64,000 nt of DNA from an uncultured Pseudomonadales bacterium (lineage in GTDB: Bacteria > Patescibacteriota > Microgenomatia > UBA1400 > PJMF01), in NCBI GenBank assembly GCA_964574595.1, contig CAZNOF010000003.1:80280-144279 (forward strand), written 5' to 3'. The notes beneath the pieces are model-generated. The model was not told where the DNA came from. It saw nothing but the letters and a program-made list of their open reading frames with translations, and made no database searches. Below are positions 2,505-64,000 of this stretch, one piece after another (the first letter of the stretch is position 1; every line of letters begins with the position of its first letter). Position numbers and translations under genes: made by a program.

Positions 2505-2505
2505 A

Positions 2506-17582: not shown

Positions 17583-17965
17583 TGACATCAAGATTAATTG
17601 CTGCAGAAACCAAACTCGGCACCTTTGAACCACCATCTACCATTTTAAAATCTTCAGATTTAACATCTGGAGCAGGTGTAACCACCAAGTTAGAAGCCGT
17701 TCTCTCTGAATTCCTAGGTATCGTCACCATCGTGGCCAGTATTGCTTTGATTTTCTACTTTATTATCGGCACTTTAAACTGGATTACCTCAAATGGTGAT
17801 TCCGGTAAAATTCAAAAAGCTCGTGAAGCCATGATTCAATCCGTATCTGGAATGGTCCTCGTTGTCGCTGCCTACGGCTTGATTGGCTTAATTGGCAACT
17901 TCTTAGGTCTTCACATTCTTAACCCAGGCACTGCTCTCTTAAATATCGTGAATGGAACGCCATGA
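17582..17965 (+). CDS. T4SS-pilin-like small membrane protein, tandem paralog 3
   Basis: It is start/stop-coupled to the previous gene (ATGA overlap). Motif: IIGTLNWITSNGDSGKIQKAREAMIQSVSGMVLV. Confidence 0.6.
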   Translation: MTSRLIAAETKLGTFEPPSTILKSSDLTSGAGVTTKLEAVLSEFLGIVTIVASIALIFYFIIGTLNWITSNGDSGKIQKAREAMIQSVSGMVLVVAAYGLIGLIGNFLGLHILNPGTALLNIVNGTP

Positions 17966-18399
17966 AAAAACAGTTTTTAAAAACTCTTACCGTTACAACT
18001 TCTTTTATTGGAAGTTCTGTCATTTTGCCAGCTCAAATCTTTGCAGCCGGTATCACCAACCCAGCCATTGGCTCATTGGGTGATAGTTCAACCAAAGCAG
18101 AAAGTGGTAGTACCTTTACTGGCTACTTCGTCACGATTTGGAGAGCCTTAATTTTTGTGGGCGTTTTAGCCTTACTCTTCAACTTACTCAATGGTGGGCT
18201 TGACTGGATTTTAGCTGGTGGTGAAGCCGCCAAAATTCAAAAAGGCCGTGACAAAATGGTCCAATCAGTTATTGGTATGGTCATTTTAGCCGGATCATTC
18301 GTAATTATTTCTTACGTCAGTAGTCTCTTATTTAACTTTGACTTGCTGAACTTAACTGTTCCTACTGTAGGGAGCGCAGGCCCAACCGGTACTCCATAA
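17962..18399 (+). CDS. T4SS-pilin-like small membrane protein, tandem paralog 4
   Basis: It has an ATGA overlap with paralog 3. Motif: LNGGLDWILAGGEAAKIQKGRDKMVQSVIGMVIL. Confidence 0.6.
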   Translation: MKKQFLKTLTVTTSFIGSSVILPAQIFAAGITNPAIGSLGDSSTKAESGSTFTGYFVTIWRALIFVGVLALLFNLLNGGLDWILAGGEAAKIQKGRDKMVQSVIGMVILAGSFVIISYVSSLLFNFDLLNLTVPTVGSAGPTGTP

Positions 18400-18406
18400 C
18401 ATATCT

Positions 18407-18796
18407 ATGAAACACACTCTCTTAGCTCAAACGCTGAATTTTCGACAAGAAGCCACTACACAGCAACTTCCTAATGCCGATGGCAACTTAGGATCTGCTT
18501 TAAGTACCGTGATTACTGCTGTGATGGCAATTGGTGTTTTAGCCGCCTTCATCTACATCGTGATGGGTGCTTTTGAGTGGATCACATCTGGTGGTGAAAA
18601 AGGCAAAGTTGAGTCAGCCAGAAATAAGATCACTGGGGCAATTATTGGCTTAATCGTCTTAGCATCTGTCTTTGTAATCATTCTATTAGTTCAAAACTTC
18701 TTGGGCGTGCAAGTGTTTACACTTGGTGGCGCAGCTACAACAACTACCAATGGTGGTGGCGGCGGTGGTTCCAGAATGGTACCAACCCAGTTCTAA
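18407..18796 (+). CDS. T4SS-pilin-like small membrane protein, tandem paralog 5
   Basis: Motif: VMGAFEWITSGGEKGKVESARNKITGAIIGLIVL. It has a Gly-rich C-terminus. Confidence 0.6.
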   Translation: MKHTLLAQTLNFRQEATTQQLPNADGNLGSALSTVITAVMAIGVLAAFIYIVMGAFEWITSGGEKGKVESARNKITGAIIGLIVLASVFVIILLVQNFLGVQVFTLGGAATTTTNGGGGGGSRMVPTQF

Positions 18797-18843
18797 GAAT
18801 TTTTATTAATAAAGAATGAATAAATAGTAGATCTCGAGTGGGC

Positions 18844-18871
18844 TTGACAGTTGCTAGAGGACTACTATAAT
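18844..18871 (+). promoter_or_regulatory. Near-consensus sigma70 promoter for pilin paralog 6
   Basis: TTGACA at 18844-18849 is followed by a 16-nt spacer and TATAAT at 18866-18871. The RBS AAGGAG and the GTG at 18902 lie downstream. Confidence 0.6.
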
Positions 18872-18901
18872 TAAATTACAGTAATTCAAAAAGGAGCCTT
18901 T

Positions 18902-19297
18902 GTGCAAATTTCATCCAGTATTCAACGAAAAATCGGTGTCGCCACCGGAGTCGCAGGTGCATTGTTAGCGAGTGTATCACCAGCTTTTGCTGCTACCACC
19001 ACTCAACAAATCAACTTGACCCCAAACACACCAGGCTTCTTCACCAACGCCAATGACTTAATTTCTAAATTACTTTCCATCGTGATGGTGATCGGCGTGA
19101 TCTTAGTGTTCGCCTTCTTAGTACTCGGTGGTATTGAGTACATCACTTCTGGTGGTGAAAAAGGTAAAACAGAAGCAGCTCGTAACAAAATTACTTCCGC
19201 TGTTATTGGTTTGATCATCTTAGCTTCTTCATATGCTATCTTGACTATCGTCTTAGGATTCTTAGGTACCAACACTACAGATATCTTGAAATTCTAA
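18902..19297 (+). CDS. T4SS-pilin-like small membrane protein, tandem paralog 6; candidate major pilin because it has its own promoter and terminator
   Basis: A GTG start is preceded by AAGGAG (18891-18896). Motif: VLGGIEYITSGGEKGKTEAARNKITSAVIGLIIL. A near-consensus sigma70 promoter sits at 18844-18871 and a perfect 12-bp-arm terminator at 19317-19350. Confidence 0.6.
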   Translation: MQISSSIQRKIGVATGVAGALLASVSPAFAATTTQQINLTPNTPGFFTNANDLISKLLSIVMVIGVILVFAFLVLGGIEYITSGGEKGKTEAARNKITSAVIGLIILASSYAILTIVLGFLGTNTTDILKF

Positions 19298-19316
19298 AAA
19301 TTAAATGAATATGTTA

Positions 19317-19350
19317 CCCCCTCCGAGGCTCCTCGGAGGGGGTTTTTGTT
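19317..19350 (+). terminator. Strong rho-independent terminator after pilin paralog 6
   Basis: A perfect 12-nt inverted repeat, ccccctccgagg/cctcggaggggg, is followed by TTTTTGTTT. Confidence 0.75.
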
Positions 19351-19391
19351 TCTGATCACTGTCTGGTATAATTTCTGATTATTGAGCCTTT

Positions 19392-19994
19392 ATGAAATCA
19401 ACGTTTCTCGCCTTCTGTTTACTTGTTCTTACTTTTTTAGGTAGCGCTCATCTTGTTAATCAAGTTCAAGCAGCCGGCGATGTGGTCATTGCTACACAGT
19501 CAGGCGCGACTTACTTAACCACAACGACCACAACCACCACAGTAGAGACTGTTACCACGACACCAACACCGATCGCTACTCTGTCTGGCACGCCAATTCC
19601 AATTGCTCAGGGACACGTTTTCTTGCCACCTGGATTTTTCCCAAGTGCTAATGCCTTAGTAAATGATCTATTTAAAGTGATCATGATCATTGCTGTAATT
19701 TTGGTGTTTGCGTATTTGGTGCTTGGTGGCTTCCAGTACATTACTTCCGGAGGAGAAAAAGGCAAAACGGAAGCAGCTAGAAATAAAATGATTTCTGCAA
19801 TCGTAGGATTAATCATTGTGGCTTCTTCATATGCCATTTTAACAATTGTCCTTAACTTTATTGGTTACAGAGACGTAACTGGCTTTTTACAAGTTGGCCC
19901 AACTGTTACCCCAACACCAGTCGCCCCGCTCGTCTCACCATCACCTCTGGTTACACCTACGCCTAGTTCCTTACTCAAACAACTGATAAAATAG
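19392..19994 (+). CDS. T4SS-pilin-like membrane protein, tandem paralog 7, with poly-Thr insert and Pro/Thr-rich C-terminal extension
   Basis: Motif: VLGGFQYITSGGEKGKTEAARNKMISAIVGLIIV. It has a TTTTTTTVETVTTTPTP linker and a PTVTPTPVAPLVSPSP tail. Confidence 0.6.
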   Translation: MKSTFLAFCLLVLTFLGSAHLVNQVQAAGDVVIATQSGATYLTTTTTTTTVETVTTTPTPIATLSGTPIPIAQGHVFLPPGFFPSANALVNDLFKVIMIIAVILVFAYLVLGGFQYITSGGEKGKTEAARNKMISAIVGLIIVASSYAILTIVLNFIGYRDVTGFLQVGPTVTPTPVAPLVSPSPLVTPTPSSLLKQLIK

Positions 19995-20004
19995 AAAAGC
20001 ACCC

Positions 20005-20466
20005 ATGAAAAAGCTCATTTTAGACACAGTCCGTATCTCCACTTTGCTTTTACCTCTCTTGATCTTGATTTTTGCCCCAACCGTCTCTGCGCAAACAGTA
20101 CAGTGGACTGGTGTATGTGTAGGCAAATCAATGACATCAGGTACTTCTGGCGGAAATGTAGATGCTGGCGATGTAGCTACAATACAAGGCTTTCAATGTT
20201 TAATTGGTAATGTCTTAATGATCTCAATTACCGGAATTGGTTTAATTGGCTTTGTGATGTTTATTGTCGGCGCCTTTCATTACATGTTGTCTGGTGGCAA
20301 TGCCAAAGGCACTGAGCAAGCCAAGAACACGATTACCTATGCCGTGATCGGTCTAGTTGTAGCGTTATCTGCGTTCATTATTTTGAACTTGGTTTCTAGC
20401 TTCACAGGCGTGAAGAGTATCTTGAACTTCACCATCTCACCTCCAAGTACCACCCCACTGAACTAA
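20005..20466 (+). CDS. T4SS-pilin-like small membrane protein, tandem paralog 8
   Basis: Motif: IVGAFHYMLSGGNAKGTEQAKNTITYAVIGLVVA. Confidence 0.6.
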   Translation: MKKLILDTVRISTLLLPLLILIFAPTVSAQTVQWTGVCVGKSMTSGTSGGNVDAGDVATIQGFQCLIGNVLMISITGIGLIGFVMFIVGAFHYMLSGGNAKGTEQAKNTITYAVIGLVVALSAFIILNLVSSFTGVKSILNFTISPPSTTPLN

Positions 20467-41212: not shown

Positions 41213-42571
41213 ATGAAAGATCACGCCTTGCCCCAAGACGTTACCGGATATAAGTTTCATATCATCGGTAACATGACGCTTAAACAGTTTGCAGAAGTTG
41301 CAGCTGGCGTTGGCGTAGGTTTTTTAATTTACTTCACCAATTTACCGGATCTTATCAAGTGGCCGCTTATTTTGACCTTTGCTGGAGTGGGTGCGTTAGC
41401 TGCTTTTGTGCCATTTGAGGAACGACCTTTAGATCACTGGATCATGTCTCTTTTCAAAGCGCTTTACAGACCAACCCAATTTTATTGGAAAAGGATGTCA
41501 AAGATTCCAGAATCTTTGCTATATGAATCAAAAACAGAATTACATACGTTGGTAAAAGAAGTTGATTTAACTCCAGCCAGACGACAGCGCGTAAAAGAGT
41601 ACCTCCACTCCGTCGTTCCAACAGAAGAGAATGACTCGATTCAGGATTACACAAACCAAAGATTAAACGAAGTGATGACTGTCTTCGATCAAGTGGTGTA
41701 CCAGCCACAGCCAGAACTTCAAATTCAACCTGACCAACTAGCTCAACCAGAATATGCACCAATGCAGCCATCATTTGCGACTGAACCAGCAATCGCGGAA
41801 ATTCCTCAACCTGAACCAATGGCTGCTCAAATGACCGAGCCAATTGCTCAACCCATGCCAGTAGCTCAAGCTGCCGAACCAGCTCAAGCTCAGGCAGCCC
41901 CAAATTGGCCAGACGCTCAACCCACCTCAATACCAGCCAATGAACAAGCAAATTCTGTTTCATTTAAGCAGACACAAAAACAAGTTGATCCAAATGCCAA
42001 CGTGCCGTTATCTATTTCACAAGGGTTTGTCTCTGGGGTAGAAATTAAAACTAAGCAAAGTAACTCGACATCAGTGAATGACATTGCCACTGCGGCAAAT
42101 TTATTAAACCAGGGTGTCTCTGTGCCACAAGCTCAAGGAATTTCAGTAGCCAGAACGCAACTAGATGATTTTGGACCAAGAACATCACCACAAAATGAGA
42201 ATCAAGTGGGTGACACCTACATTACCAGTCAAAATTTAAATACCAACCAAGGTCCACAGGCCACACAGATGGCGGTTCAAGATAAGACGCTCCCCTTCCC
42301 TGCCAAGCCAACTCAACCAAATAAAATTGTTGGCATGTCTATAGATAGTAATAATGTGCCGCTAAGCAACGTGATTATTGAAATCTTAACGCCAGAAGGT
42401 ATTCCAGCCAGAGCTGTTAAGACGAATATTTTAGGTCAATTTTTTATCACTACCCCATTAGGAAATGGAACATATACAATATCTGCAGAAAAAGCAGGCT
42501 ATACTTTTCCACCCCAGAGCCTAGAATTAACAGGGCAGGTACTAGATCCTATTGAAGTGAGAAGCCAATAA
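41213..42571 (+). CDS. PrgI-family (VirB3-like) T4SS membrane protein with Q/P-rich linker and C-terminal carboxypeptidase-regulatory-like beta domain
   Basis: The N-terminus, KQFAEVAAGVGVGFLIYF...LILTFAGVGALAAFVPFEERPLDHWIMSLFKALYRP, resembles PrgI/VirB3 (two TM). The C-terminus, IIEILTPEGIPARAVKTNILGQFFITTPLGNGTYTISAEKAGY, is CarbopepD_reg-like. Confidence 0.5.
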   Translation: MKDHALPQDVTGYKFHIIGNMTLKQFAEVAAGVGVGFLIYFTNLPDLIKWPLILTFAGVGALAAFVPFEERPLDHWIMSLFKALYRPTQFYWKRMSKIPESLLYESKTELHTLVKEVDLTPARRQRVKEYLHSVVPTEENDSIQDYTNQRLNEVMTVFDQVVYQPQPELQIQPDQLAQPEYAPMQPSFATEPAIAEIPQPEPMAAQMTEPIAQPMPVAQAAEPAQAQAAPNWPDAQPTSIPANEQANSVSFKQTQKQVDPNANVPLSISQGFVSGVEIKTKQSNSTSVNDIATAANLLNQGVSVPQAQGISVARTQLDDFGPRTSPQNENQVGDTYITSQNLNTNQGPQATQMAVQDKTLPFPAKPTQPNKIVGMSIDSNNVPLSNVIIEILTPEGIPARAVKTNILGQFFITTPLGNGTYTISAEKAGYTFPPQSLELTGQVLDPIEVRSQ

Positions 42572-43553: not shown

Positions 43554-45704
43554 ATGCCCTCTTTTTCTTTACCAAACCTTCCATTTTTACCTAAGAAACC
43601 TGTTGCCGCAGAAGACGAAGCACAGCAAATGAAGGATCATAACGAGAAAATTCTCAAAGAGTTTTCTCAGGGCCTAGTCACTATTCAGGATATTATCGCT
43701 CCTGAAGCTATTGAGGTGGACTTTACCTTTCAAAAAATTAACTCTACCTACACCAGAACATTATTTGTAGCCGGCTACCCGAGAACCGTCCCATCAAACT
43801 GGTTATCTCCGTTGATTAACTTTCCACATCAGCTCGATATTGCCATGTACATCTATCCTGTAGACGTTCGTGAAGTGCTTGATAACTTAAAGCGCAAGAT
43901 TACAGAAATGGAAGCTGAAATTACCTCTGACTTGAGAAATGGTCGAATTAGTAACATTGATACCGAAGTAAAACTTGAAGACGCCAGAATTATTCGTGAG
44001 CAGTTAGCAAAAGGAGCTGAGCGTTTCTATCAGTTCGGTTTGTACATCACTATTCAAGCCAAAGACAAAGATGAGTTGGAACGAGTCACAAAGAGTGTCC
44101 AGTCCACATTGGGTTCATTGTTAATTGTTTCCAAAAAAGCCACATTACAAATGGATGAAGGTTTTAAAACGACTTTGCCATCTGGCAGCGATAAATTAAT
44201 GATCACGAGAAACATGGATACCACGTCCCTAGCGACCACATTTCCATTCACTTCTTCAGAACTGACCATGGAAACCGGTATTGTGTACGGAATTAATGAG
44301 CATAATGATTCGTTGGTGGTCTTCGACCGATTTAAAATGGAAAACTTTAATATGGTTATCTTCGCCAAATCTGGTGCAGGAAAATCATTCACCGTTAAAT
44401 TGGAAATTTTGCGCCAGTTAATGTTCGATACAGAAGTCTTAGTTCTCGACCCAGAACACGAGTACGAAGAGCTGACCAAGTCGGTTGGCGGCGAGTATAT
44501 TAACTTCACTTTTAATTCTCAGGCAAAGATTAATCCTTTTGACTTATCAAACGTTTATGAAGAAGGCGAAAATGAACTCGGTCAAAAGATTATTCACTTA
44601 CACGCTCTCTTAAAAGTCATGCTTGGTGAGATGACGCCAACTCAAGACGCTATTCTCGATAGAACTTTGGTGGCAGCATATAAAGCCAAAGGCATTACCC
44701 CTGATCCAGCTACTCAAACCAATGAACCACCTTTAATGGAAGATCTCTACAAAGCCTTAATTGGTATGGAAAATGAAGATGCTGCCAATATTGCGGCTCG
44801 CTTAGAGAAGTTTATTACTGGATCTTTCAGAGGTATTTTTGACCAGAAATCGAACATTAACATTAAAAACCAATTGACCGTCTTCTCTGTCCGTGAAATG
44901 GAAGAAGAAATGCGACCAATTGCCATGTTTGTGATTCTGGACTTTATGTGGACCAGAATTCGTAAAAAATTGAAAAAGCGATTACTCGTTGTTGATGAAG
45001 CCTGGTACTTCATGAGATATCCAGATTCAGCCTTCTTCTTACAGTCAATTGCCAAGCGTGCTCGTAAATACTATCTCGCCGTTACCACTGTCACCCAGGA
45101 CGTAGAAGACTTTATGGCGAACGACTTTGGGAAAGCAATTGTTACAAACGCTTCTATTAAATTCTTAATGAAGCAGTCCTCTGCCTCAGTGCCCATTTTG
45201 GCAGAAACATTCTACTTATCTGAAGGTGAGAAGCAGTTGCTCGTCTCCTCAGATGTAGGAGAAGGTATCTTCTTTGCCGGACAAAATCACGTGGCTTTGC
45301 GGGTCGTCGCCAGTCCAGATGAATACGGTTTGATTACCACCAACCCAGAAGAAATCTTAAAACAACGGAACAGCGCCCAGATTGCTGATCAAGGTGGCAG
45401 TCCCATTACCCAATCAGTTAGAGCTGGATTAACTGCCGGTATTCCATTACAAGGCAATATGGGTGGAGGCGCACCAATGCGACCACCTCAATTCCAAAGT
45501 CAGGCACAAAATTTACCGCTGGCTCCTCAGCCAGGGAATCCACTAAATACTGTTCAAACGAGAAGAGTCCAAATTCCAACGACTCAAGCAGCCGCCCCAG
45601 CACCACAACCGATCCAAACGGCTACAGCGAACGGTTCGGGTATTCCTGAACCAAAACAGTACGCTGGTACATTTACCATTGACGATTATCAACCGCCCAA
45701 GTAA
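43554..45704 (+). CDS. VirB4/TrbE/PrgJ-family T4SS ATPase
   Basis: Walker A, VIFAKSGAGKSFTV, lies at about 44361-44390. Walker B, RLLVVDEAWYFM, lies at about 44985-45010. A C-terminal Q/P-rich tail is present. Confidence 0.85.
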   Translation: MPSFSLPNLPFLPKKPVAAEDEAQQMKDHNEKILKEFSQGLVTIQDIIAPEAIEVDFTFQKINSTYTRTLFVAGYPRTVPSNWLSPLINFPHQLDIAMYIYPVDVREVLDNLKRKITEMEAEITSDLRNGRISNIDTEVKLEDARIIREQLAKGAERFYQFGLYITIQAKDKDELERVTKSVQSTLGSLLIVSKKATLQMDEGFKTTLPSGSDKLMITRNMDTTSLATTFPFTSSELTMETGIVYGINEHNDSLVVFDRFKMENFNMVIFAKSGAGKSFTVKLEILRQLMFDTEVLVLDPEHEYEELTKSVGGEYINFTFNSQAKINPFDLSNVYEEGENELGQKIIHLHALLKVMLGEMTPTQDAILDRTLVAAYKAKGITPDPATQTNEPPLMEDLYKALIGMENEDAANIAARLEKFITGSFRGIFDQKSNINIKNQLTVFSVREMEEEMRPIAMFVILDFMWTRIRKKLKKRLLVVDEAWYFMRYPDSAFFLQSIAKRARKYYLAVTTVTQDVEDFMANDFGKAIVTNASIKFLMKQSSASVPILAETFYLSEGEKQLLVSSDVGEGIFFAGQNHVALRVVASPDEYGLITTNPEEILKQRNSAQIADQGGSPITQSVRAGLTAGIPLQGNMGGGAPMRPPQFQSQAQNLPLAPQPGNPLNTVQTRRVQIPTTQAAAPAPQPIQTATANGSGIPEPKQYAGTFTIDDYQPPK

Positions 45705-45851: not shown

Positions 45852-47558
45852 ATGGAAAACCCTTCTGTCTCAACAATTTGGTCGCATGTTTGCTCCGTTT
45901 TACAAGCAAATTTAAGTCCATCAGCCTACAACACATGGATTGTCTCCAATCCATTAACCGATTTCCGCTTAATTGGCGATGACAGAGCCATTGGCGTTAT
46001 CACTAGCCCCACAGCCTTCCACTCAACCAACATTGAAAAGAACTTTTATGCCCAAATCAAAGAGGTCCTAGATCAAGTAACCGGCCGAAACTCTGAATTA
46101 CAGTTTCGGGTTGGGGTCATCTCTGCCCAACCGGCTTCCCCCATAAACCAGCCGTCTCAGCAACCGATGCAGCCAACAACTCTGCAACAACCAGCCGCTT
46201 CTCCATTCCAGCCTCCGACTTTTGGCTCACAACCGGCAGATACCATTCAAGATCAATTTCAGTCATTTTCTTCACCAAATCTTTCCGAGGGAGAAACGGC
46301 TTCTGCTGAGTATCATGCGGCACCAGCTAAAACAGACTCCCCTCTTAGTCAATCAATTAGCTCAGTGCAAGAACGATTACGGGCGATGGCAGAGCGACCA
46401 CAACCAAGGCAAGAGTCGCCAGCCAATTTAAAAATGGTCGGTCAGAACAGCTCACCAGGTGACCTCTTCTCCCCTGCTACGATTCAGACAATGTCTATAG
46501 ATCGAGCAAGAAGCCAGGCTCAACGAGCAGGTTTACGACTCGATTACACTTTTGACACCTTTGCTGTTTCGACTACGAATGAAATGGCTCATGCCGCAGC
46601 TATGGCTGTTTCAACCCAGCCTGGAACTGCCTATAATCCCCTCTTTATTTATGGAGGCGTCGGAGTGGGAAAAACGCACTTAATGCACGCAGTGGGAAAC
46701 AATATTCTTAAAAATAATCCTGATGTAAAGCTCCTTTACTGCACCGGAGAAGATTTCACCAATGAAATTGTCAATGCCATTCAAACCAAGCGAGCCATGC
46801 TCTTTAAGGAAAAGTTCCGGACAGTGGACATTCTCTTAATTGACGATGTTCAGTTCATTGCCGGTAAAAATACGGTTCAGGAAGAGTTCTTTCACACATT
46901 TAACACCGTCACCAAACGCTTTGGCCAGGTCATTTTAACGTCAGATCGCCCACCTCAAGAGATTGCTTTACTTGAGGACCGAATCAGATCCCGTTTTGAG
47001 GCGGGATTAATGGTCGATATTCAACAACCGTCCTTTGAATTACGAACAGCCATCGTGTTAATTAAAGCAAATTCCTATCAATTTACGATTCCGATGAACT
47101 TAGCACAAATTATTGCCTCAAAGGTAGATAGTGCTCGGAAAATTGAGGGCTTAATGAAGAGTATTAAGTCAGAAGTGGAACTAAAACATCGCGAGATTTC
47201 TCTCGAGTTAATTGAAGACGTTCTTAAGATTGATAATGACACGAAGACTACAAAACGGTTACGCGTCAAACCCTACGATTTAATTAAGACAGTGGCTGAC
47301 TATTACCACATTAAGCAGGTAGCAATCAGAGGTAAGCAACGAGTCAAGGCGATTGTCCGAGCCAGGCATGTAGCCATGTATTTTATGAAAGAGGAACTCA
47401 ATCTACCGTATATGGAAATTGGACGCTGGTTCTCTAATAGAGATCATACGAGTGCCATGCACGCCCTCAAAAAGATCCACGAAGAGGTCACCCAAGACGA
47501 CGACTTGAGACGAGAAGTAAACGAGATACGGGACATGTTATTAAAGATCTCGAGGTAA
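45852..47558 (+). CDS. dnaA: Chromosomal replication initiator protein DnaA, with a ~110-aa Q/P-rich linker insertion
   Basis: The AAA+ Walker A is GGVGVGKTHLMHAVGN and Walker B is LLIDDVQFIAGK. Domain IV, RARHVAMYFMKEELNLPYMEIGRWFSNRDHTSAMHA, is the DnaA signature. Confidence 0.9.
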   Translation: MENPSVSTIWSHVCSVLQANLSPSAYNTWIVSNPLTDFRLIGDDRAIGVITSPTAFHSTNIEKNFYAQIKEVLDQVTGRNSELQFRVGVISAQPASPINQPSQQPMQPTTLQQPAASPFQPPTFGSQPADTIQDQFQSFSSPNLSEGETASAEYHAAPAKTDSPLSQSISSVQERLRAMAERPQPRQESPANLKMVGQNSSPGDLFSPATIQTMSIDRARSQAQRAGLRLDYTFDTFAVSTTNEMAHAAAMAVSTQPGTAYNPLFIYGGVGVGKTHLMHAVGNNILKNNPDVKLLYCTGEDFTNEIVNAIQTKRAMLFKEKFRTVDILLIDDVQFIAGKNTVQEEFFHTFNTVTKRFGQVILTSDRPPQEIALLEDRIRSRFEAGLMVDIQQPSFELRTAIVLIKANSYQFTIPMNLAQIIASKVDSARKIEGLMKSIKSEVELKHREISLELIEDVLKIDNDTKTTKRLRVKPYDLIKTVADYYHIKQVAIRGKQRVKAIVRARHVAMYFMKEELNLPYMEIGRWFSNRDHTSAMHALKKIHEEVTQDDDLRREVNEIRDMLLKISR

Positions 47559-47587
47559 ATTACTAGTTTGTAACAGTTATGCACAAT

Positions 47588-47596
47588 TGTGGATAA
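47588..47596 (+). promoter_or_regulatory. Perfect DnaA box TGTGGATAA immediately downstream of dnaA (oriC candidate region 47559-47869)
   Basis: It is an exact consensus 9-mer. It sits in an AT-rich 311-bp dnaA-dnaN intergenic region with additional degenerate boxes (47633-47641 aGTGTATAA; 47778-47786 TTATACACc) and an AT-rich tract at about 47795-47840. Confidence 0.6.
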
Positions 47597-47869
47597 CTTT
47601 GTTGAAAAGTATGAGCGTTATATTTGCAGAAAAGTGTATAAGTAAGCTACTTTCAAAAACAACGTGACTTTATTCACTTTTCAACACTGTTATTAACAAG
47701 TTAGGCAGAAGTTTTAAGTCACTCGTTAACGCAAAAAAGAACCGAAAATGCTTGAGTAGTTTTAAAAGTTATTCAACTTATACACCGCCTAATACTACTG
47801 TTACTATTTTTATTATCTATCTATATACAGTAATATTAGTCAAAGAGAATTCTCTTTAGTTAGGCAGCT

Positions 47870-48979
47870 ATGAACATCACTATCCTTCATGAGAATTTGC
47901 AGAGAGTAATTCAAGATTTACAGAAAAGTATTCCCTCTCGTCCTAGTTTACCAATCCTTTCCTGCATATTAATCCAAGCTGAACAATCAGGGAAAATTCT
48001 CTTTTCTGCAACGGATTTAAGTGTTGGTATCACCGCTTCTATTCAAGGTGAAGTAACTCAAGAAGGTAAAGTTGCCGTTCCGGCTAAAGTATTTATTGAT
48101 TTTATTAATTCTTTGCCAGCCGGAAAAATCACTCTTCAAGTAGAAAATCAGACTATGAAGATTCTTTCTGAAGGAGCGACTGCCGAAATTCAATGTCTTT
48201 CCGCAGCAGATTACCCATCCTTTCCAGCAAAAGAAGGTTTTGATCTGGAACTTCCTTTAGAAACATTTACTACCGCTATTCAAAATACGGCTTTTGCGGC
48301 CTCTCTTGATGAAGCTCGACCTATTTTTACGGCCGTGTTGTTAACTGCTAAAGAGAAACAAGACTTGCAAGTCATTGCGACTGATGGTTACCGATTAGCC
48401 ACATTAGAAATCCCCTACTCTGCTCAACCCTTCAACTTGCTTATTCCTTCAAAAGGGTTGCAAGAAGTGGTTCGTGTGGCATTGAGAAAGAAAGAAGAGA
48501 AAATCCTTTTTACGGTCTCTGAGAAGCTTAAGCAAGCCTTTTTTTCCTTTGGTGAGGTTGAGATTTTGGTCCGTGTCATGGAAGGTGAGTTCCCACCCTA
48601 TCAGAAAATTATTCCGGCTGGTTTTACCACTCAACTGACTTTTGACGGCAATGAGTTTAGTCAAAAGTTAAAGACAGCTCTTATTTTTGCTAGAGAGTCT
48701 GCTGGTATTGTCCGTTTGAAAATTGAACAAGATCAATTAAAACTCATTTCAGCTTCCTCCTCTATAGGTCATCAAGAGAGCTCTGTCAGAATTCAATTAA
48801 TTGCTGGTGGAGATCAAGAAATTGCTTTTAACGCCAAATACTTAAGTGAGTTTTTATCTGTTGTGAAACCAGATCAAGTCTGGTTCGGTATGAATGAATC
48901 ACTCAAGCCGGCACTGTTTAGGCCCGCTGGGATGGAAAATTATCGGTATATTGTTATGCCATTTAGAGTGAATCAATAA
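47870..48979 (+). CDS. dnaN: DNA polymerase III beta subunit (sliding clamp)
   Basis: The ORF is 369 aa with the MNITILHENLQRVIQDL N-terminus and a three-domain clamp architecture. It is located directly after dnaA. Confidence 0.85.
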   Translation: MNITILHENLQRVIQDLQKSIPSRPSLPILSCILIQAEQSGKILFSATDLSVGITASIQGEVTQEGKVAVPAKVFIDFINSLPAGKITLQVENQTMKILSEGATAEIQCLSAADYPSFPAKEGFDLELPLETFTTAIQNTAFAASLDEARPIFTAVLLTAKEKQDLQVIATDGYRLATLEIPYSAQPFNLLIPSKGLQEVVRVALRKKEEKILFTVSEKLKQAFFSFGEVEILVRVMEGEFPPYQKIIPAGFTTQLTFDGNEFSQKLKTALIFARESAGIVRLKIEQDQLKLISASSSIGHQESSVRIQLIAGGDQEIAFNAKYLSEFLSVVKPDQVWFGMNESLKPALFRPAGMENYRYIVMPFRVNQ

Positions 48980-51224: not shown

Positions 51225-51653
51225 ATGCACTTGGTCATTCATACAGATGGTGGTGCTCGTGGAAATCCAGGTCCAGCCGGAATTGGGATCGTTTTCTTAG
51301 CAGACGGAAAAGATGACGTTGTCTTGTACGAAGAAGGTCAGTTTATTGGCGATGGCAAGACCAACAATGAGGCAGAGTACACTGCTTTTTATACCTCAGC
51401 TCAAGTATTACAAAAGAATATTTCCACCTGGAATCCAACATCAATCGAGTGGCAACTGGATTCAAAGTTAGTGGTAGAGCAGCTGAATCGAAAATGGAAA
51501 ATTAAAGAACCAAGAATGCAGCAATTTGCTAAAGACATTTGGCAAGTATTAGCTACTCTACAAGTGCCTTATAAAATTGCTCATATTCCTCGAGAACTGA
51601 ACTCCGCTGCTGATGCGCTTTACAACCAAGCTCTAGATGCTCAACTGAGTTAA
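51225..51653 (+). CDS. RNase H-like family protein (RNase HI-like / reverse-transcriptase-like RNase H fold)
   Basis: HTDGGARGNPGPAGIGIV and the spacing of a later D/E match the small bacterial RNase H family. Confidence 0.6.
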   Translation: MHLVIHTDGGARGNPGPAGIGIVFLADGKDDVVLYEEGQFIGDGKTNNEAEYTAFYTSAQVLQKNISTWNPTSIEWQLDSKLVVEQLNRKWKIKEPRMQQFAKDIWQVLATLQVPYKIAHIPRELNSAADALYNQALDAQLS

Positions 51654-59002: not shown

Positions 59003-60793
59003 TTATTCGTAGTTACGTCTGTCACCATAACGAGAAATTTGCAAATCAAGCCCACCAGTCTCATCGTAGATGGCGGTCACTTTAGGGACTCCATACTCTT
59101 TGTTTTGTTTAATGACTTCGTTTAAGAAACGTGCTCTTTTCTCTTCAGGCACAAAACTGTAGATAATTGCTTGGCCGAGACTAATTCCCCATTGTGGCAG
59201 CACCAGATTAAAATCGACTCCTGGTTCTCTCAATCCTAGTTCCTGAGTTAACCCAATGAGTTTATCACCGCAGAGGTTCGCTAAGGAAAAATTCGGATCT
59301 GGTTCAAGTAAGTAATAGGTATTCTTGACACTCAAGTCTTGGCCAACTTCTTCTGATTTCACTTCTTTGACTGTGCAGCCAATGAGTTGTCCCAACTTCT
59401 CTAGCTGCTCTTTGTTCACAATCATTCGGTGGAAGAAATGCTTGCCATTTGGGCTGTCATAGATCATTTTGGCTTTTTGAGGCGTGACGCCTTTTTCAGT
59501 CAGTCTCTTTTCAAGACGAGATGCCAAGTCTGCATATACTCCATAAGATGGGTCTGGGTAGTCAATCAACCAGGTTTTTACGGTCCCCATCATCTGGGAA
59601 AGTGCCACCAACAGTTTCTCTTGAGAGTTAGCATGGGGAAGTGACCGACCTAGACAAATTCCAATATCTTGATCTGGGATGCTAAGTGAGGTGAGCTCGT
59701 CCCAGCGGCCTTGGATGGCAGTGGCTCGATCTTTAAAAGTCTCTTTCAATTTTGACAGAATTTCAAATAAAGCTGGTTGTGGCTCAACAGAGGTAACATG
59801 ACCACAGTCAGCTTCAAGGAGTGCTTTTGAGACCCGACCAAAGCCGGCGGCTAACTCCAAGACTTTCGCGTCTTTTAAATCTATGTTCAACTCTTCTTTT
59901 AAGATCTTGGCAACCAAGTTGACTTCGTTCTTTGTTACTTCAGATTCATAATGTTTTAAGAAATCCTCAAGCGATTTATTGTAAACTTCATCGAGTTCTG
60001 CCATTACTTCCATGACCTCTTGGCCACTAAACTCTTCAAATAACTGTTTGATCTTGGTATTGTCTCTAGCTAATGGGGAAAGAACCTCAATAAACTGAAT
60101 GTACCCAAAAGCATTGATATATTGAACGGCATAGTCGTTTAACTCCTTAGGAGTTAATGTCTCTTCAAGAAAAATCTGATTTGCGATGCGTGCCTCGTTT
60201 GACGAGAGGAGGTAGTGAAGCGTCTGCTGTAGATACTGGGCGTTTCCATCTTTGAGTGCACAAAAAATTCCTGTTTCAATTACCGGTGATTGTTGTTCAG
60301 AAAGAGCATCATATCGTTCCTGATTTAATTGAGTTCTTTCGGGAATTTGTACCTCAATATTGATAGCTTCTGTCCAAAGCTGATATGCCAAGAACTCCGT
60401 CAGGAGGTACTTCTCTTTAAAGTTACTATTCCCCAGAAGTTCTTCAACAAGTTTGGGTTGTCTGAGGATTTTTTTTAGTCTTTGGTGAATAAGATCTTTC
60501 TTACTATCCCAAAATTTGTTGTATGCGGGATCCACCTGGTTTGGATTCTTGCTGCCTTCTTCTTGTGCGTTTGCGAATTTCCAGCAACTGAGTACTATTC
60601 CCAGTGAATCGAGCTCTGATTGGGTCCACATCTCTCTAGAGAAGACCGCATTTTGCAATTCGTGTTCTGCCTGAGCGTAGACAGCTTGGTATTTTTGCCA
60701 AAGATCTGGAGATAGAGTGTTTGGACGTTTGTCTTCCTGATTGCTTTGGGGGATTGTCAGAACTTCGAGATTTTCACCTGTTTGCATAAGCAA
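59003..60793 (-). CDS. Hypothetical protein with C-terminal class I SAM-dependent methyltransferase-like domain
   Basis: Motif I, VLELAAGFGRVSKAL, lies in the C-terminal third. The N-terminal ~300 aa are unassigned. Confidence 0.45.
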   Translation of the reverse strand: MLMQTGENLEVLTIPQSNQEDKRPNTLSPDLWQKYQAVYAQAEHELQNAVFSREMWTQSELDSLGIVLSCWKFANAQEEGSKNPNQVDPAYNKFWDSKKDLIHQRLKKILRQPKLVEELLGNSNFKEKYLLTEFLAYQLWTEAINIEVQIPERTQLNQERYDALSEQQSPVIETGIFCALKDGNAQYLQQTLHYLLSSNEARIANQIFLEETLTPKELNDYAVQYINAFGYIQFIEVLSPLARDNTKIKQLFEEFSGQEVMEVMAELDEVYNKSLEDFLKHYESEVTKNEVNLVAKILKEELNIDLKDAKVLELAAGFGRVSKALLEADCGHVTSVEPQPALFEILSKLKETFKDRATAIQGRWDELTSLSIPDQDIGICLGRSLPHANSQEKLLVALSQMMGTVKTWLIDYPDPSYGVYADLASRLEKRLTEKGVTPQKAKMIYDSPNGKHFFHRMIVNKEQLEKLGQLIGCTVKEVKSEEVGQDLSVKNTYYLLEPDPNFSLANLCGDKLIGLTQELGLREPGVDFNLVLPQWGISLGQAIIYSFVPEEKRARFLNEVIKQNKEYGVPKVTAIYDETGGLDLQISRYGDRRNYE

Positions 60794-60809
60794 ATCTAGT
60801 ATTGCACAG

Positions 60810-61580
60810 TTAGGAAAGTTTTTGCCAAGTTAATTCAAACCAAGATCGAAATGTGTTGGCAATTACTGAGTTATTAATAATAATGCCCACGAGTTGGGTG
60901 CCTTTTCGATGATTGATAATCGAAACTTTTGAGCCATAAATATTGATTTCGTTCTGAAATGGGAACTTGTCTTTATCAATCACTTTCGTCTCACGAAGCT
61001 CCTTTTCATTTAACTCAACATATTTTTCTGTTTTTGAACCGGAAGCCACAATAGAGCGAACAGATAATCCATGTTTAACGCGCTCAATCGCGTAATTCTT
61101 GGTTACCCACTCATAAATCTCTTGATCTACAGCAGATGTTTCAACCAGGGCTAAAATTGGCTGATTTTCCCTCAAGGTGTCCAGGTACACCTTCTTTATG
61201 CCTTCTACGCCCTCATAGTAGGTAACTACCGGTTTGTTCTCGAGTAGAGAGTACTTTGAGGCGAGGGTGGGTAAGAGAGCCTCCAGGCTGGATTCAGCAG
61301 CCTCTGCCTGTTCTTTTTTTGCCTGCGCCAAGCGCATGAGTCTTTCTGGAGATTCGGTAATAAAAACAGTGGCTTTTCCACGCTTTTCCGCCTGGATTAA
61401 GCCTAGTTTGATGAGCTCTGCGGTGAGGGTATAGACATAGGTTCTCTTGACCTTCGTGCTTTTGGCCAGATCAGAGGCAGATTGAGCACCATTTTCGAGT
61501 AAAGACTCATAAATATCGATTTGATCTGGAGAAAGACCAAGAGAGATGAGCAGATTTCTAAACATACCTCCAGTATGCAC
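60810..61580 (-). CDS. TrmB-family transcriptional regulator (N-terminal wHTH + C-terminal TrmB domain)
   Basis: The N-terminus reads LGLSPDQIDIYESLLENGAQSASDLAKSTKVKRTYVYTLTAELIKLGLI. The alternative ATG start at 61565 is more likely than the GTG at 61580. Confidence 0.6.
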   Translation of the reverse strand: MHTGGMFRNLLISLGLSPDQIDIYESLLENGAQSASDLAKSTKVKRTYVYTLTAELIKLGLIQAEKRGKATVFITESPERLMRLAQAKKEQAEAAESSLEALLPTLASKYSLLENKPVVTYYEGVEGIKKVYLDTLRENQPILALVETSAVDQEIYEWVTKNYAIERVKHGLSVRSIVASGSKTEKYVELNEKELRETKVIDKDKFPFQNEINIYGSKVSIINHRKGTQLVGIIINNSVIANTFRSWFELTWQKLS

Positions 61581-61592
61581 GATTTATAACTC

Positions 61593-61612
61593 CTGTCAAT
61601 TATCACTGACAG
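61593..61612. promoter_or_regulatory. 20-bp palindrome CTGTCAATTATCACTGACAG directly upstream of the TrmB-like regulator gene; candidate autoregulatory operator
   Basis: The 8-bp arms ctgtcaat/actgacag have one mismatch and are separated by tatc. Confidence 0.4.
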
Positions 61613-61703
61613 TATTTTAGTATCGGTGTAAGTAAAATTTGCGTTGTCAAATATTATTAACAGCAATGGTTATTACTAGATATAAATCAGGTGTCTATAA
61701 CTA

Positions 61704-61732
61704 TTGACAATCCTATAATAATATACTATACT
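61704..61732 (+). promoter_or_regulatory. Sigma70-like promoter (TTGACA-17-TATACT) pointing toward the structured leader and the 62087 gene
   Basis: The exact -35 hexamer lies at 61704-61709, with a 17-nt spacer and a -10 TATACT at 61727-61732. Confidence 0.45.
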
Positions 61733-62086
61733 ACCCTCATTCTGATACGAAAGTGTCAGAGAACTTTAACAACTTGGTCATAACACTGCTTTTTAAAAAA
61801 TGCAGTAAATAGTAACTAAGTAGAAACGTACAGATCTGTCGGACATTTGTCGGAACAGACGAGTAAGTCTCTGCTTCTCTATAAACAAGACATGTTTCCT
61901 AAAGAAACATTTCCACTTATTTGTCTAACAAGACTTCTAGGTGGGGAAAAGCATTCCGCGGAATTTTTTTCCCCACTTCTTAGAACGTAAATGGCAGTGT
62001 TATGACCAAGGGATCTTTAAAAATTAAACACGAACAAATTTCAAACTCTGAGTTGGTGGCTACTTTTGGTTTCTTGAGAAAAGAAA

Positions 62087-63382
62087 TTGAAAGTGGCTGC
62101 CAACTCTGGTAGTCAAGGATTATTCCTACTCATATATCTAAATGGAGAAGACAAAGTGAAGAAGCTCGTGAACCTGACCCCGCATGTGCTTAATGTTTGC
62201 AATGCAGACGGACAATTAGTTACGTCGATTGCACCAACAGCCCCCGCCGCGCGATGCACGACCAAAACCTCGCAAATTGGTGAGCAAGATGGCATTCCAT
62301 TTTTTGCCACGACATTTGGTGAAATTTTGGACCTCCCTCCGGAAACCGAAAACACTGTTTTCATTGTCTCGTTGGTTGTGCGCCAAGCTGCCCCTGATCG
62401 TCTGGATCTGGCAAGTCCCGGTGAACTCATCCGCGATGATAATGGCCAGCCGAAAGGCTGCAAGGGACTGGCGATGAATGTGCCGGTCTCCGATGTAAAG
62501 CCAACAGTGGCTAACTTCCCGGTTACATTGGAAGAAGTGAAACGGCTCATGGAGCTGGTTGCATACGCAGATAATACTGCGTGCTACTTTTCTTACCCAG
62601 CTTTGGGCGGGGAGGATATCCAGCTTCTGGTAGAACTCCAGCGTCGGTTAGGGTATTCGTTAAAGGTTCATCCTAATGTTGGATCCTACGAAAAGGCGCT
62701 TGAGCGTTTGAAACTCGAAGTTCCGGCATCCCCGATTATCAGACCGTACGTTAGCCCGGAAGAAGCCATTCGCCTAATGAATTTGGTGGCGCTCGGTGAG
62801 GACTACGCCACATTCAGTGGTGTGCCGATGTTGACTGGGGAAGATGTTGGGTTCTTGGCCGAACTTCAGAGTCGTTTGGGTGTGGAAAGCCTGAAAGGGT
62901 ATTCACGCACCAAGACGTACACTCAAGAAGCAGTTCCTGCACCTAACTCATTACCGCAAGTTTCCATCCCAGAAGTCATTCGTTTGATGAACTTGGTAGC
63001 CTTTGCCGACTCGACAGCTGCCAATTACTCATCTTATGCGCTGGGCAACGGCAAGAGCAAGGATGTTCAATTTATGGCAGAGCTGCAACAGCGGCTCGGA
63101 GTATCCACGCTGAACGGTCTTCGCGATCTCTCCTACGTCGATATGGTGAAGGAAGAAGGAATCGAAGTTCCCCCTCGCCAACCGGCGCAATTTATCTCTC
63201 AGGCCGAAGTCCGTAAGCTTCTGATGATCCTGTACTCGGTTGAAAATCAGGCCTTGAATCAAATGACCACCCCGGTCTTGTCCCAAAAGGACGTAGAACT
63301 GCTGGCTAAAATTGAGGAAATGGCCGGCATTGCCTCAGAAATTCGTGTTTATGCCAAACGGGCCTCAAAACCCGCTCAGTAA
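62087..63382 (+). CDS. Hypothetical protein built of four ~70-aa tandem repeats (motif hRLMNLVAxxDxxA...G.ED..FLAELQxRLGV)
   Basis: The repeats begin at VKRLMELVAYADNTA, AIRLMNLVALGEDYA, VIRLMNLVAFADSTA and VRKLLMILYSVENQA. The likely true start is the GTG at about 62155, after GGAGAAGACAAA. Confidence 0.5.
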   Translation: MKVAANSGSQGLFLLIYLNGEDKVKKLVNLTPHVLNVCNADGQLVTSIAPTAPAARCTTKTSQIGEQDGIPFFATTFGEILDLPPETENTVFIVSLVVRQAAPDRLDLASPGELIRDDNGQPKGCKGLAMNVPVSDVKPTVANFPVTLEEVKRLMELVAYADNTACYFSYPALGGEDIQLLVELQRRLGYSLKVHPNVGSYEKALERLKLEVPASPIIRPYVSPEEAIRLMNLVALGEDYATFSGVPMLTGEDVGFLAELQSRLGVESLKGYSRTKTYTQEAVPAPNSLPQVSIPEVIRLMNLVAFADSTAANYSSYALGNGKSKDVQFMAELQQRLGVSTLNGLRDLSYVDMVKEEGIEVPPRQPAQFISQAEVRKLLMILYSVENQALNQMTTPVLSQKDVELLAKIEEMAGIASEIRVYAKRASKPAQ

Positions 63383-63534
63383 AGATCCTGCTTGCTTCAG
63401 CCGAGAGTCTGAGGCAAGAGTAATTGAAACTCTCGTCTTGTTTGAATAAAAATTCCGGAAGTGTACTACATGTCTTGTTAGTGCCTTCCGGTTTTTTTTG
63501 CCAATTTTGAGGTTGTTTTGGAGATATTGATCAA

Positions 63535-63978
63535 CTACCCAGTTCCCACTAAGAAAACCGCTTGCCAAGCTTTGTAGTTAGAAAAGTAGGTGTCGCGGCG
63601 GAGTTCTTTACCATCTTTATCTTTAATGACGTTGGTGAAGCTGGACTTAATCCCGCCGGCAGCGAAGTCCACTTGCTTAGTAGTGCCTTTAGGAAGCGTT
63701 GGATCTTCTTGATATCGTGGAGCGGGAGCGGAAACTGCATCCCAAGTTTTATGATCGACAATTTGGGTGGTTCGGCCATCAGATGTGCCAAAGATCTCTA
63801 CCGCTAAATACAACGCTTTGGGGTTGTTCTCAGTGTGAATCAGAATGTCGTGACCAGTGTCATTAATAAATCGCAAATCTACCTCTCCCGCGTAGACAGT
63901 GGCATCAATTCCTGGTTTGGAGTTAAGTTCGTAGTAACTGACACGATAACTATGGGGAATTCTTTTGGTGACTTTCAA
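63535..63978 (-). CDS. Hypothetical protein, probably N-terminally incomplete because the window ends
   Basis: The reading frame stays open upstream to the window edge at 64000. No motif is recognised. Confidence 0.3.
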   Translation of the reverse strand: MKVTKRIPHSYRVSYYELNSKPGIDATVYAGEVDLRFINDTGHDILIHTENNPKALYLAVEIFGTSDGRTTQIVDHKTWDAVSAPAPRYQEDPTLPKGTTKQVDFAAGGIKSSFTNVIKDKDGKELRRDTYFSNYKAWQAVFLVGTG

Positions 63979-64000
63979 ACCAGCATTTAGGACTGCTCGG

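Follow-up and report, generated by a model that had tools for sequence, protein, structure and literature searches.

A TrmB-linked divergent control region in a Microgenomatia chromosome and its candidate rRNA-operon-style leader ahead of a Crn4-type protein gene

What is the role of a highly structured intergenic region that separates a TrmB-like regulator gene from a divergent protein-coding gene in the chromosome of a bacterium of the candidate phyla radiation (CPR)? The region lies in a stretch of 64,000 nucleotides (nt), called the window here, of contig CAZNOF010000003.1 (assembly GCA_964574595.1, positions 80,280 to 144,279 of the forward strand), which is deposited as an uncultured Pseudomonadales bacterium and placed by GTDB in Patescibacteriota, Microgenomatia. 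The initial annotation described an operator palindrome, a promoter, and a perfect inverted repeat in this region, and proposed either a miniature inverted-repeat transposable element (MITE) or a long-range-closed, multi-hairpin 5' leader of the downstream gene. The second proposal gained ground, as the same parts were found in the same order in relatives: operators over the -35 elements, one or two promoters, a 5' hairpin, a boxA-like motif, and the 5' strand of a helix of 13 to 25 base pairs (bp). We conclude that the region 61566-62155 is probably a divergent control region followed by an antitermination leader of about 415 nt, in the style of the rRNA operon (rrn), which would belong to a single-gene unit.

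The genes of the window were scanned with Pfam and PADLOC, the region 60800-64000 was read directly, and repeat, promoter, and pattern scans were run. For comparison, two loci (L038 and L039) were obtained by exact look-up and 80 further loci by a profile scan of metagenome contigs. The relatives used carry a TrmB-like regulator 50-62% identical to that of the window, with many orthologs, and their intergenic regions were read in the orientation of the window. The elements on which the proposed leader depends are as follows:

61741-61760, plus strand: hairpin UCUGAUAC-GAAA-GUGUCAGA at the 5' end of the predicted transcript (z = -2.6), in a boxB-like position and directly abutting boxA1.
61761-61771, plus strand: boxA-like element 1 (boxA1), GAACUUUAACA, with two mismatches to GYTCTTTAANA and with G2, C5, and U6 kept.
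61773-61795, plus strand: leader (5') strand of the long-range helix (left repeat of the initial annotation), at offset 0 from boxA1, as in 10 other lineages.
61988-62010, plus strand: trailer (3') strand of the helix (right repeat of the initial annotation).
62012-62022, plus strand: boxA-like element 2 (boxA2), GAUCUUUAAAA, directly after the trailer strand, with one mismatch to GYTCTTTAANA and with the G, C, and U kept.

The perfect 17-nt inverted repeat (61773-61789 and 61994-62010, enclosing 204 nt) is present as first described, with two exact arms of the 17-mer observed against 0.19 expected in shuffles of the window. It can be extended to 18 bp, to 22 bp if one mismatch is allowed, and to 23 nt with 91% of the positions complementary. 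In the relatives, the 25 nt that follow boxA were searched for the longest helix that they can form with the next 1.3 kb, with 100 dinucleotide-preserving shuffles for each locus. The following helices are uninterrupted and start at offset 0 from boxA:

Window: 18 bp enclosing 202 nt; 0 of 100 shuffles reach this length (longest shuffled helix, 14 bp).
L038: 21 bp enclosing 302 nt; 0 of 100 shuffles.
L047: 25 bp enclosing 219 nt; 0 of 100 shuffles.
L051: 20 bp enclosing 363 nt; 0 of 100 shuffles.
L056: 14 bp enclosing 275 nt; 0 of 100 shuffles.
L039: 13 bp enclosing 1225 nt, with two open reading frames (ORFs); 3 of 100 shuffles.

Duplex folding added imperfect helices in other lineages: about 25 bp with one mismatch in L049, two stretches, of 11 bp and 6 bp, with a 2-nt mismatch between them in L054, 17 bp with two A·C mismatches in L053 (with two compensatory changes relative to L047), 10 bp plus 14 bp in L043, and a weaker helix in L044. 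When the 17 outermost positions were compared across 11 lineages, each position showed three to six pair types, and 93% of the cells paired, against 30-42% when the partner was slid by 1 to 3 nt; the 93% is partly circular, because the 3' arms of the relatives were found via complementarity. Independent support for the helix is provided by the shuffle test and by its fixed position relative to the boxA motifs. The features themselves, their positional conservation, and the covariation of the helix across lineages are observed directly. The helix sequence differs between lineages and includes G-U pairs in several of them (three in L038, for example), which indicates that the pairing takes place in RNA and not in DNA. 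Helices that hold the same position in spite of unrelated sequences, and that include G-U pairs, point to selection on RNA pairing rather than to a recent insertion. In L039, the strand after boxA pairs with a segment about 1.2 kb downstream, beyond the coding regions, and in L002 (2372/3300) it possibly pairs beyond the coding region as well. A helix of this type would bracket the whole mRNA, as the rRNA flanks bracket 16S.

The second line of evidence is the pair of boxA-like motifs. The working consensus of boxA is GYTCTTTAANA (PMC5725501), of which NusB-NusE reads 8 nt, with G2, C5, and U6 being critical for the NusB contacts (PMC3177189). The motif that follows the hairpin in the window reads GAACTTTAACA. 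The consensus is matched perfectly in four loci, namely L039 (GCUCUUUAACA / GCTCTTTAACA), L087 and L049 (both with GTTCTTTAACA), and L089 (GTTCTTTAAAA). Among 49 nonredundant TrmB-linked loci, a motif with at most one mismatch occurs within the first 110 nt after the -10 element in 9, compared with 18 of 692 control windows; allowing two mismatches, the counts are 23 of 49 and 99 of 692. The lineage consensus is roughly aaGWWCNUURAMAA. A second boxA-like motif directly 3' of the 3' arm of the helix is found in the window and in L047, L049, L051, and L054, these motifs reading GGATCTTTAAAAAT, CGTACTTTGAAAAG, GCTCTTTCACAAG, and AGAACTTTGAAAAG. In the window, boxA1 and boxA2 correspond to a direct repeat that flanks the inverted repeat (61758-61772 and 62009-62023, 80% identical), the boxA-like nature of which had escaped the initial annotation, as had the GAAA-loop hairpin at 61741-61760. 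Most orthologs have a hairpin of differing sequence at this position, some with GAAA loops, and z is below -1.5 in 26 of the 49 loci.

A related arrangement was seen at distant CPR loci with TrmB-like regulators only 30-37% identical (L060-L118), where a hairpin-plus-boxA cassette also follows a TrmB-linked promoter and the transcript starts are conserved, e.g., GUCAAGCUGAAA or GUUACGAUGA. At several of these loci, a ribosome-binding site and a gene come directly after the cassette, with no enclosed RNA domain.

Upstream of the leader, the control region comprises the regulator gene, two promoters, and three palindromes:

60810-61580, minus strand: gene for a TrmB-like winged-helix regulator (Pfam PF01978 TrmB, E = 3.8e-10).
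61572-61599, minus strand: promoter of the regulator, TTGACA-16-CATACT, found by the promoter scan.
61594-61611, strand not applicable: operator O1, the perfect palindrome TGTCA-N8-TGACA, one half-site of which is the -35 of the regulator's promoter.
61645-61662, strand not applicable: operator-like O2, TGTCAAATATTATTAACA, 51 bp from O1 and 79% identical to it.
61692-61709, strand not applicable: operator O3, TGTCTATAACTATTGACA, overlapping the -35 of the plus-strand promoter.
61704-61732, plus strand: sigma-70-type promoter TTGACA-17-TATACT, with 11 of 12 consensus matches and a transcription start site predicted near 61739.

Of these elements, the initial annotation had reported the 20-bp palindrome CTGTCAATTATCACTGACAG (61593-61612) and the plus-strand promoter, and both are present; it had missed O2, O3, and the promoter of the regulator. 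The promoter also holds up as a real element, since it has 11 of 12 matches and its core is conserved in orthologs. The reading of the palindrome as an operator is strengthened by the motif TGTMA-N8-TGACA, which has three copies in the window (O1, O2, and O3) and recurs in orthologs, where each promoter carries it at the -35 and a copy adjoins the start of the regulator gene; O1 lying over the -35 of the regulator and O3 over the divergent -35 speaks for it as well. Palindromes equivalent to O1 adjoin the TrmB start in L038, L040, L053, and L054, and TGTMAY-N6/7-TTGACA stands upstream of every orthologous promoter, the right half of the palindrome being the -35 TTGACA of the plus-strand promoter. 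The domain match and the repeated palindrome, taken together, identify a TrmB-family regulator with a divergent operator, the binding of which is a prediction. The overlap of O1 and O3 with both -35 elements suggests autoregulation and control of the leader promoter.

The ORF of the regulator opens at GTG 61580, and orthologs of 250-252 amino acids (aa) align from query residue 6. The true start is therefore likely ATG 61565, which would give 251 aa as in the orthologs and leave GTG 61580 five codons too long. The -10 element of the regulator promoter ends 6 nt before this ATG, and the same arrangement of -35, -10, and ATG, with 6 to 9 nt from -10 to ATG, is found in L038, L040, L043, L044, and L053, so the regulator mRNA is probably leaderless.

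The core of the plus-strand promoter is kept in L038, L039, and L002, and similar sequences occur in about 45 TrmB-linked loci, with the operator likewise conserved. In orthologs it takes the form TTGACAAnCCTATAA..TATAnT, or more fully TTGACAAnCCTATAAnA..TGnTATAnT, and the core in the window (ATTGACAATCCTATAATAA) is almost identical to those of L039 and L038. An exact copy of a 15-mer of the window promoter, CTATAACTATTGACA, precedes a homolog of the downstream gene in L002/L003, at a locus unlinked to TrmB. Some orthologs have a single strong promoter, others two at a distance of about 88 nt. In the window there is only one promoter-plus-boxA cassette, and between the long-range helix and the downstream gene the promoter scan found no promoter-like site and the fold no U-tailed hairpin.

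Antitermination through boxA and Nus factors and leader-trailer helices are textbook features of rRNA operons. In the model proposed for rrn, boxA with NusB bound keeps the leader strand tethered by the RNA exit channel while the trailer is still to be made (PMC10250234), and the leader-trailer helix of Escherichia coli, which must exceed 17 bp, overlaps the RNase III site (PMC10250234). By analogy, binding of Nus factors, antitermination, cleavage by RNase III, and repression by the TrmB-like protein would be combined at this locus in the following way. The TrmB-like regulator would bind the three TGTCA-N8-TGACA operators over the -35 elements of its own promoter and of the plus-strand promoter. 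The transcript from the latter would open with the GAAA-loop hairpin that abuts boxA1, where NusB/NusE and other Nus factors would load, and the polymerase would then resist termination across the long, untranslated, structured leader. The 18 to 23 nt right after boxA1 would pair with 61988-62010 and close a multi-hairpin domain of 204 nt, with boxA2 after the 3' strand; the Nus factors would retain the leader strand close to the exit channel up to the appearance of the trailer and thereby allow the long-range helix to form. The resulting duplex of about 22 bp would be a likely substrate of RNase III, and cleavage would free the enclosed RNA and leave an mRNA starting near boxA2.

It is important to consider that, besides the partial circularity of the pairing figure, several points weigh against the antitermination leader. 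The transcription start site, the read-through, and the processing are all sequence-based predictions, and the enclosed RNA has no demonstrated function. BoxA1 differs from the consensus at positions 2-3, and this consensus is gammaproteobacterial and may not be that of the host. NusB, Rho, and RNase III are not encoded among the proteins of the window, which was the only part of the genome looked at. No convincing helix was found in L040 and L045 by the helix search and duplex folding. Finally, the helix of the window itself is wholly Watson-Crick and could also be explained by an inverted repeat acting at the DNA level.

Within the leader, four further elements were recorded:

61836-61842 and 61847-61853, plus strand: tandem UGUCGGA, 11 nt apart, inside the enclosed domain.
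61892-61910, plus strand: internal hairpin AUGUUUCCUAAAGAAACAU, from the repeat scan and fold, with no conservation shown.
61941-61976, plus strand: long hairpin GUGGGGAAAAGC...UUUUUUUCCCCAC, 89% complementary and with the core ATTCCGCGGAAT exact, shortly before the trailer strand.
62050-62106, plus strand: imperfect long hairpin between boxA2 and the ribosome-binding site, with 26-nt arms of 77% complementarity and no U-tail.

The first three of these had been described in the initial annotation (as a direct repeat TGTCGGA, a 19-nt hairpin, and a 36-nt palindrome, the last indeed 89% complementary with an exact core), and all three were recovered. The long hairpin at 61941-61976 is homologous to a GUGGGAUAAAGG...UUUUUAUCCCAC hairpin just upstream of the trailer strand in L047, L049, L051, and L054; aligned with L047, L049, and L054, it has 18 pairs, 7 of them with compensatory changes on both sides. 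The tandem repeat also has counterparts: CCUGUCC occurs in tandem, 14 to 16 nt apart, at a similar place in L043, L044, L047, and L054, and in three copies with wider spacing in L053. The CCUGUCC/UGUCGGA repeats may serve to bind a protein. The predicted fold of a 293-nt stretch reaches -98.4 kcal/mol (z = -8.5 for the plus strand, a stability equaled by 0 of 200 shuffles, and z = -8.0 for the minus strand). Across lineages, the enclosed domains span 202-577 nt and are multibranched, and they cannot be aligned between genera.

These properties allow a first rival explanation, in which the helix-closed domain of 200-580 nt is a discrete stable noncoding RNA, matured like rRNA, and the downstream gene is merely cotranscribed. 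The domain is always present in the Microgenomates orthologs, even though the downstream genes are unrelated; it has a conserved hairpin, the recurring tandem CCUGUCC/UGUCGGA motifs, and a very stable predicted fold, and its rrn-like flanks are those used for stable RNAs. However, its length (202-577 nt) and sequence vary strongly between genera, no core can be aligned across all lineages, and no Rfam family matches it. Moreover, the helix encloses whole coding regions instead of a small RNA in L039 and possibly in L002, and at the distant CPR loci the gene follows hairpin and boxA at once, with no enclosed domain. We therefore regard a separate RNA gene as a doubtful explanation. Put in evolutionary terms, the Microgenomates may have co-opted the rRNA biogenesis pathway (boxA/Nus, leader-trailer helix, and RNase III excision) for a lineage-variable stable RNA of 200-580 nt in a TrmB-controlled hotspot, a proposition that we advance only tentatively and with low confidence. 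If it were true, the excised RNA, with its tandem CCUGUCC/UGUCGGA and its GUGGG...CCCAC hairpin, would be a conserved functional product, and its possible roles would include that of a protein sponge or of a device by which accessory genes are expressed according to how much of the rRNA transcription machinery is available.

The search for known RNA families and genes was negative. Rfam scans of the window and of 17 orthologous loci gave nothing above the gathering threshold, and the best match of the region at E <= 10 was a snoRNA model, with 25.6 bits against a threshold of 100. Consequently, neither a riboswitch, which the initial annotation had allowed for, nor any other known RNA family matches the region. 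ARAGORN found no tRNA or transfer-messenger RNA, and no universal rRNA motifs were present in any of the fetched loci. The element also contains a small ORF (61847-61990, 47 aa, TTG start), but it lacks a ribosome-binding site and is not conserved. A 6S RNA was rejected, given that the fold is multibranched and not a rod with a central bubble and that Rfam gave no hit. A retron msr/msd was likewise rejected because no reverse transcriptase adjoins the region; the one match of that kind within the window, at 51225-51653, is to an RNase H-type domain.

A second rival explanation is a conditional attenuator or riboswitch-like leader, in which 61941-61976, with a U-run as its 3' half, would terminate transcription within the leader unless the polymerase is boxA-modified or a ligand or protein changes the fold. 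The terminator scan does flag 61941-61959 with a T-run, the hairpin at 61941-61976 is conserved with an A-tract/U-tract design, and an alternative local pairing of ACUGC (61785-61789) with GCAGU (61802-61806), instead of the distal arm, is available. On the contrary, the U-run of this hairpin is paired within the stem and does not trail it, no Rfam riboswitch matches even at E <= 10, and there is no conserved core resembling a ligand pocket across lineages. Attenuation of this type is unlikely.

The MITE proposed by the initial annotation, i.e., a small nonautonomous transposon inserted as a 238-bp unit in the 5' untranslated region (UTR), fared worse, and we consider it very unlikely. The likeness lies in the unit itself, which is short, AT-rich (36% GC), and noncoding, with perfect 17-bp terminal inverted repeats; imperfect direct repeats also flank it, and the copy count is so far limited to the window and to collections without the source genome. 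As far as searched, however, the unit appears to be single copy: blastn found no second copy of the region in the 64-kb window and nothing similar among plasmids and phages. The 17-mer has 29 hits in a 596-Gb genome collection (the source genome not among them) and 2 in viral contigs, but these are single-arm hits in unrelated taxa, none extending beyond about 22 nt, and thus chance matches. A target-site duplication, another expectation of the MITE, is absent as well. The only flanking repeat (61758-61772/62009-62023) overlaps the right repeat and does not abut both repeat ends, and its two copies are the boxA-like motifs, conserved in orthologs with different helices; since these motifs flank the helix, the "direct repeats" are two boxA elements and not target-site duplications. 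Furthermore, no relative has an empty site, as a helix of different sequence, with some G-U pairs, is kept at the same homologous position, and relatives also carry counterparts of two internal motifs, namely the hairpin at 61941-61976 and the UGUC repeats.

A switch at the DNA level, with the repeats as recombination sites of an invertible or excisable segment of the inverton type or as a cruciform protein-binding site, would agree with perfect 17-bp inverted repeats around some 200 bp ahead of a variable accessory gene, but it is most improbable given that Pfam scans of the neighbors revealed no recombinase or invertase gene within several kb, that the promoter lies outside the inverted repeats, and that the G-U pairs in the helices of relatives would be mismatches in DNA. 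An origin of transfer (oriT) or single-stranded-DNA promoter of a conjugative element was also considered, because the neighbor of a homolog is a TraG/VirD4-like protein, but the chromosomal location of the locus, its synteny across Microgenomates, and its proximity to dnaA led to the rejection of this possibility.

The antitermination leader that we favor would be followed by a single gene and a terminator-like hairpin:

62144-63382, plus strand: Shine-Dalgarno sequence GGAGA (62144-62148) and a gene of 408 aa from GTG 62156 to 63382, with the start set by homologs.
63455-63500, plus strand: terminator-like hairpin CCGGAAG...CTTCCGG with a T-run, read from the sequence, which would end the transcription unit.

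The start at GTG 62156 was chosen because the homologs begin with M-KLVNLTPH. In the 408-aa protein, a Crn4-type ring-nuclease domain occupies the N-terminus (aa 1-107), with four repeats of about 65 aa, which have no Pfam match, behind it. In a profile search of PDB sequences, the domain matched Crn4b (9r7b, E = 1.9e-12), Crn4a (5.2e-12), and Crn4 H15A (1.3e-10). The sole significant Foldseek match was again 9r7b, at 29% identity and with a query model of moderate quality (predicted local distance difference test score, 67), and PADLOC assigned Unk_01 ("sometimes fused to CARF") with E = 1.2e-20. The residues of Crn4 catalysis have their equivalents in the Thr and His of NLTPH and the Arg of LIRD (PMC12830947), and all three are invariant in the homolog alignment. 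By homology and by these conserved residues, the N-terminal 107 aa can be assigned to the Crn4 ring-nuclease family, with nuclease activity as a prediction. No type III CRISPR or other CRISPR-Cas genes were found among the window proteins scanned with Pfam and PADLOC.

The genes that follow the leader are wholly different between related genomes. At two independent loci (L038 and L005), variable cargo genes are followed by cpn10 and cpn60, so that in some Microgenomates the hotspot is bordered by the TrmB-like gene and by groES/groEL. These chaperonin genes were rejected as a conserved target, because the cargo genes in between encode unrelated hypothetical proteins.

The surroundings of the locus are chromosomal, and the source annotations of TrmB homologs assign the window to the Microgenomates. 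The genes of the window include dnaA, dnaN, yidC, and those for ribosomal protein L25 and valyl-tRNA synthetase (ValRS). On the plus strand, dnaA and dnaN, followed by yidC and a jag/KhpB-like gene, occupy 45852-48979, so the window spans the replication-origin region of the chromosome, and the leader locus lies about 14 kb from dnaA. Neighbors within several kb encode the TrmB-like regulator, a methyltransferase-like protein, ValRS, and a VanW-domain protein. The methyltransferase-like gene (59003-60793, minus strand), which is convergent with the TrmB-like gene, encodes a 596-aa protein with weak methyltransferase-domain matches only. The synteny of the TrmB-like gene and the convergent methyltransferase-like gene is kept in L038 and L039, a pairing that suggests a functional link to the regulator; in the same two loci, the divergent intergenic region before the first ORF measures 570-620 bp. 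Farther away, seven small ORFs stand in a row at 17193-20466 (plus strand), six of which match Pfam T4SS_pilin PF18895 (five above the curated cut-off), while the ORF at 17962-18399 within this run has no Pfam match. Together with a PrgI-like gene (41213-42571) and a VirB4/TraG-type ATPase gene (43554-45704), they form a type IV secretion or pilus cluster with diversified pilins. At 705-3600 (minus strand), an ATP-dependent DNA ligase of the archaeal/eukaryotic type (A_N, A_M, and A_C domains) adjoins a Fic/DOC-family protein.

To our knowledge, only isolated boxA elements, such as the one at suhB, have been described outside rRNA operons, and we know of almost nothing on gene regulation in CPR genomes. 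The locus would place a complete rrn-style module, under a dedicated TrmB-like repressor, ahead of ordinary and rapidly exchanged protein-coding genes in CPR bacteria, and this module encloses an uncharacterized structured RNA that is absent from Rfam. If the antitermination leader is real, the polymerase and chaperone machinery of rRNA would be reused for other transcripts, and the locus would offer a compact natural system for studying how the positioning of boxA promotes long-range RNA pairing. Its signature (operator, promoter, hairpin, boxA, and helix) could then serve to find regulated accessory loci in CPR genomes. In addition, a fusion of a Crn4-type cyclic-oligoadenylate nuclease, with activity predicted from sequence, would be placed in a CPR chromosome under the control of the leader.

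Compared with known systems, the 408-aa protein resembles Crn4a and Crn4b (PDB 9r7b, 9sma, and 9qs9) in the profile match of its N-terminal 107 aa and in its catalytic-type residues. It differs from them in its fusion to four repeats, its location on a CPR chromosome, and its position behind the leader described here. The leader shares with the suhB 5' UTR of E. coli and Salmonella, with other boxA genes (PMC5725501), and with lambda nut a boxA in the 5' UTR of a protein gene, the G2, C5, and U6 residues, and an adjacent hairpin. Nevertheless, the suhB-type boxA lies within 50 nt of the start codon and acts in repression, whereas boxA1 precedes the start codon by about 385 nt and is combined with both a long-range helix and a second boxA. 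In the window, the hairpin comes before boxA, as in rrn and unlike phage lambda.

The closest comparison is with the rRNA operons, whose leaders combine P1/P2 promoters, the 16S leader-trailer helix, and a spacer boxA, and whose rRNA transcription antitermination complex (rrnTAC) consists of NusA/B/E/G, SuhB, and S4. In rrn, boxB-boxA-boxC stand just after P2, a further set lies upstream of the 23S gene, and complementary flanks form the leader-trailer helices (PMC10250234). Unlike these operons, the window-type helix encloses 200-580 nt of poorly conserved RNA with no rRNA or tRNA, a protein-coding gene follows, the promoter lies under a TrmB-like operator, and the leader strand abuts boxA directly, while E. 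coli has 18-19 nt between boxA and boxC. Since no rRNA is enclosed, the element is not a member of the rrn operon class, although it is built like one. Its boxA has the critical G2/C5/U6, a hairpin lies 5' of boxA near a strong promoter, and the long helix covaries. As in rrn, the order in the window is promoter, hairpin, boxA, leader strand, enclosed RNA, trailer strand, and second boxA; the helix is at least 17 bp long (18 bp in the window and 13-25 bp, with different sequences, in 10 other lineages); and the orthologs often have two tandem promoters about 88 nt apart, with flanks that vary while the pairing is kept.

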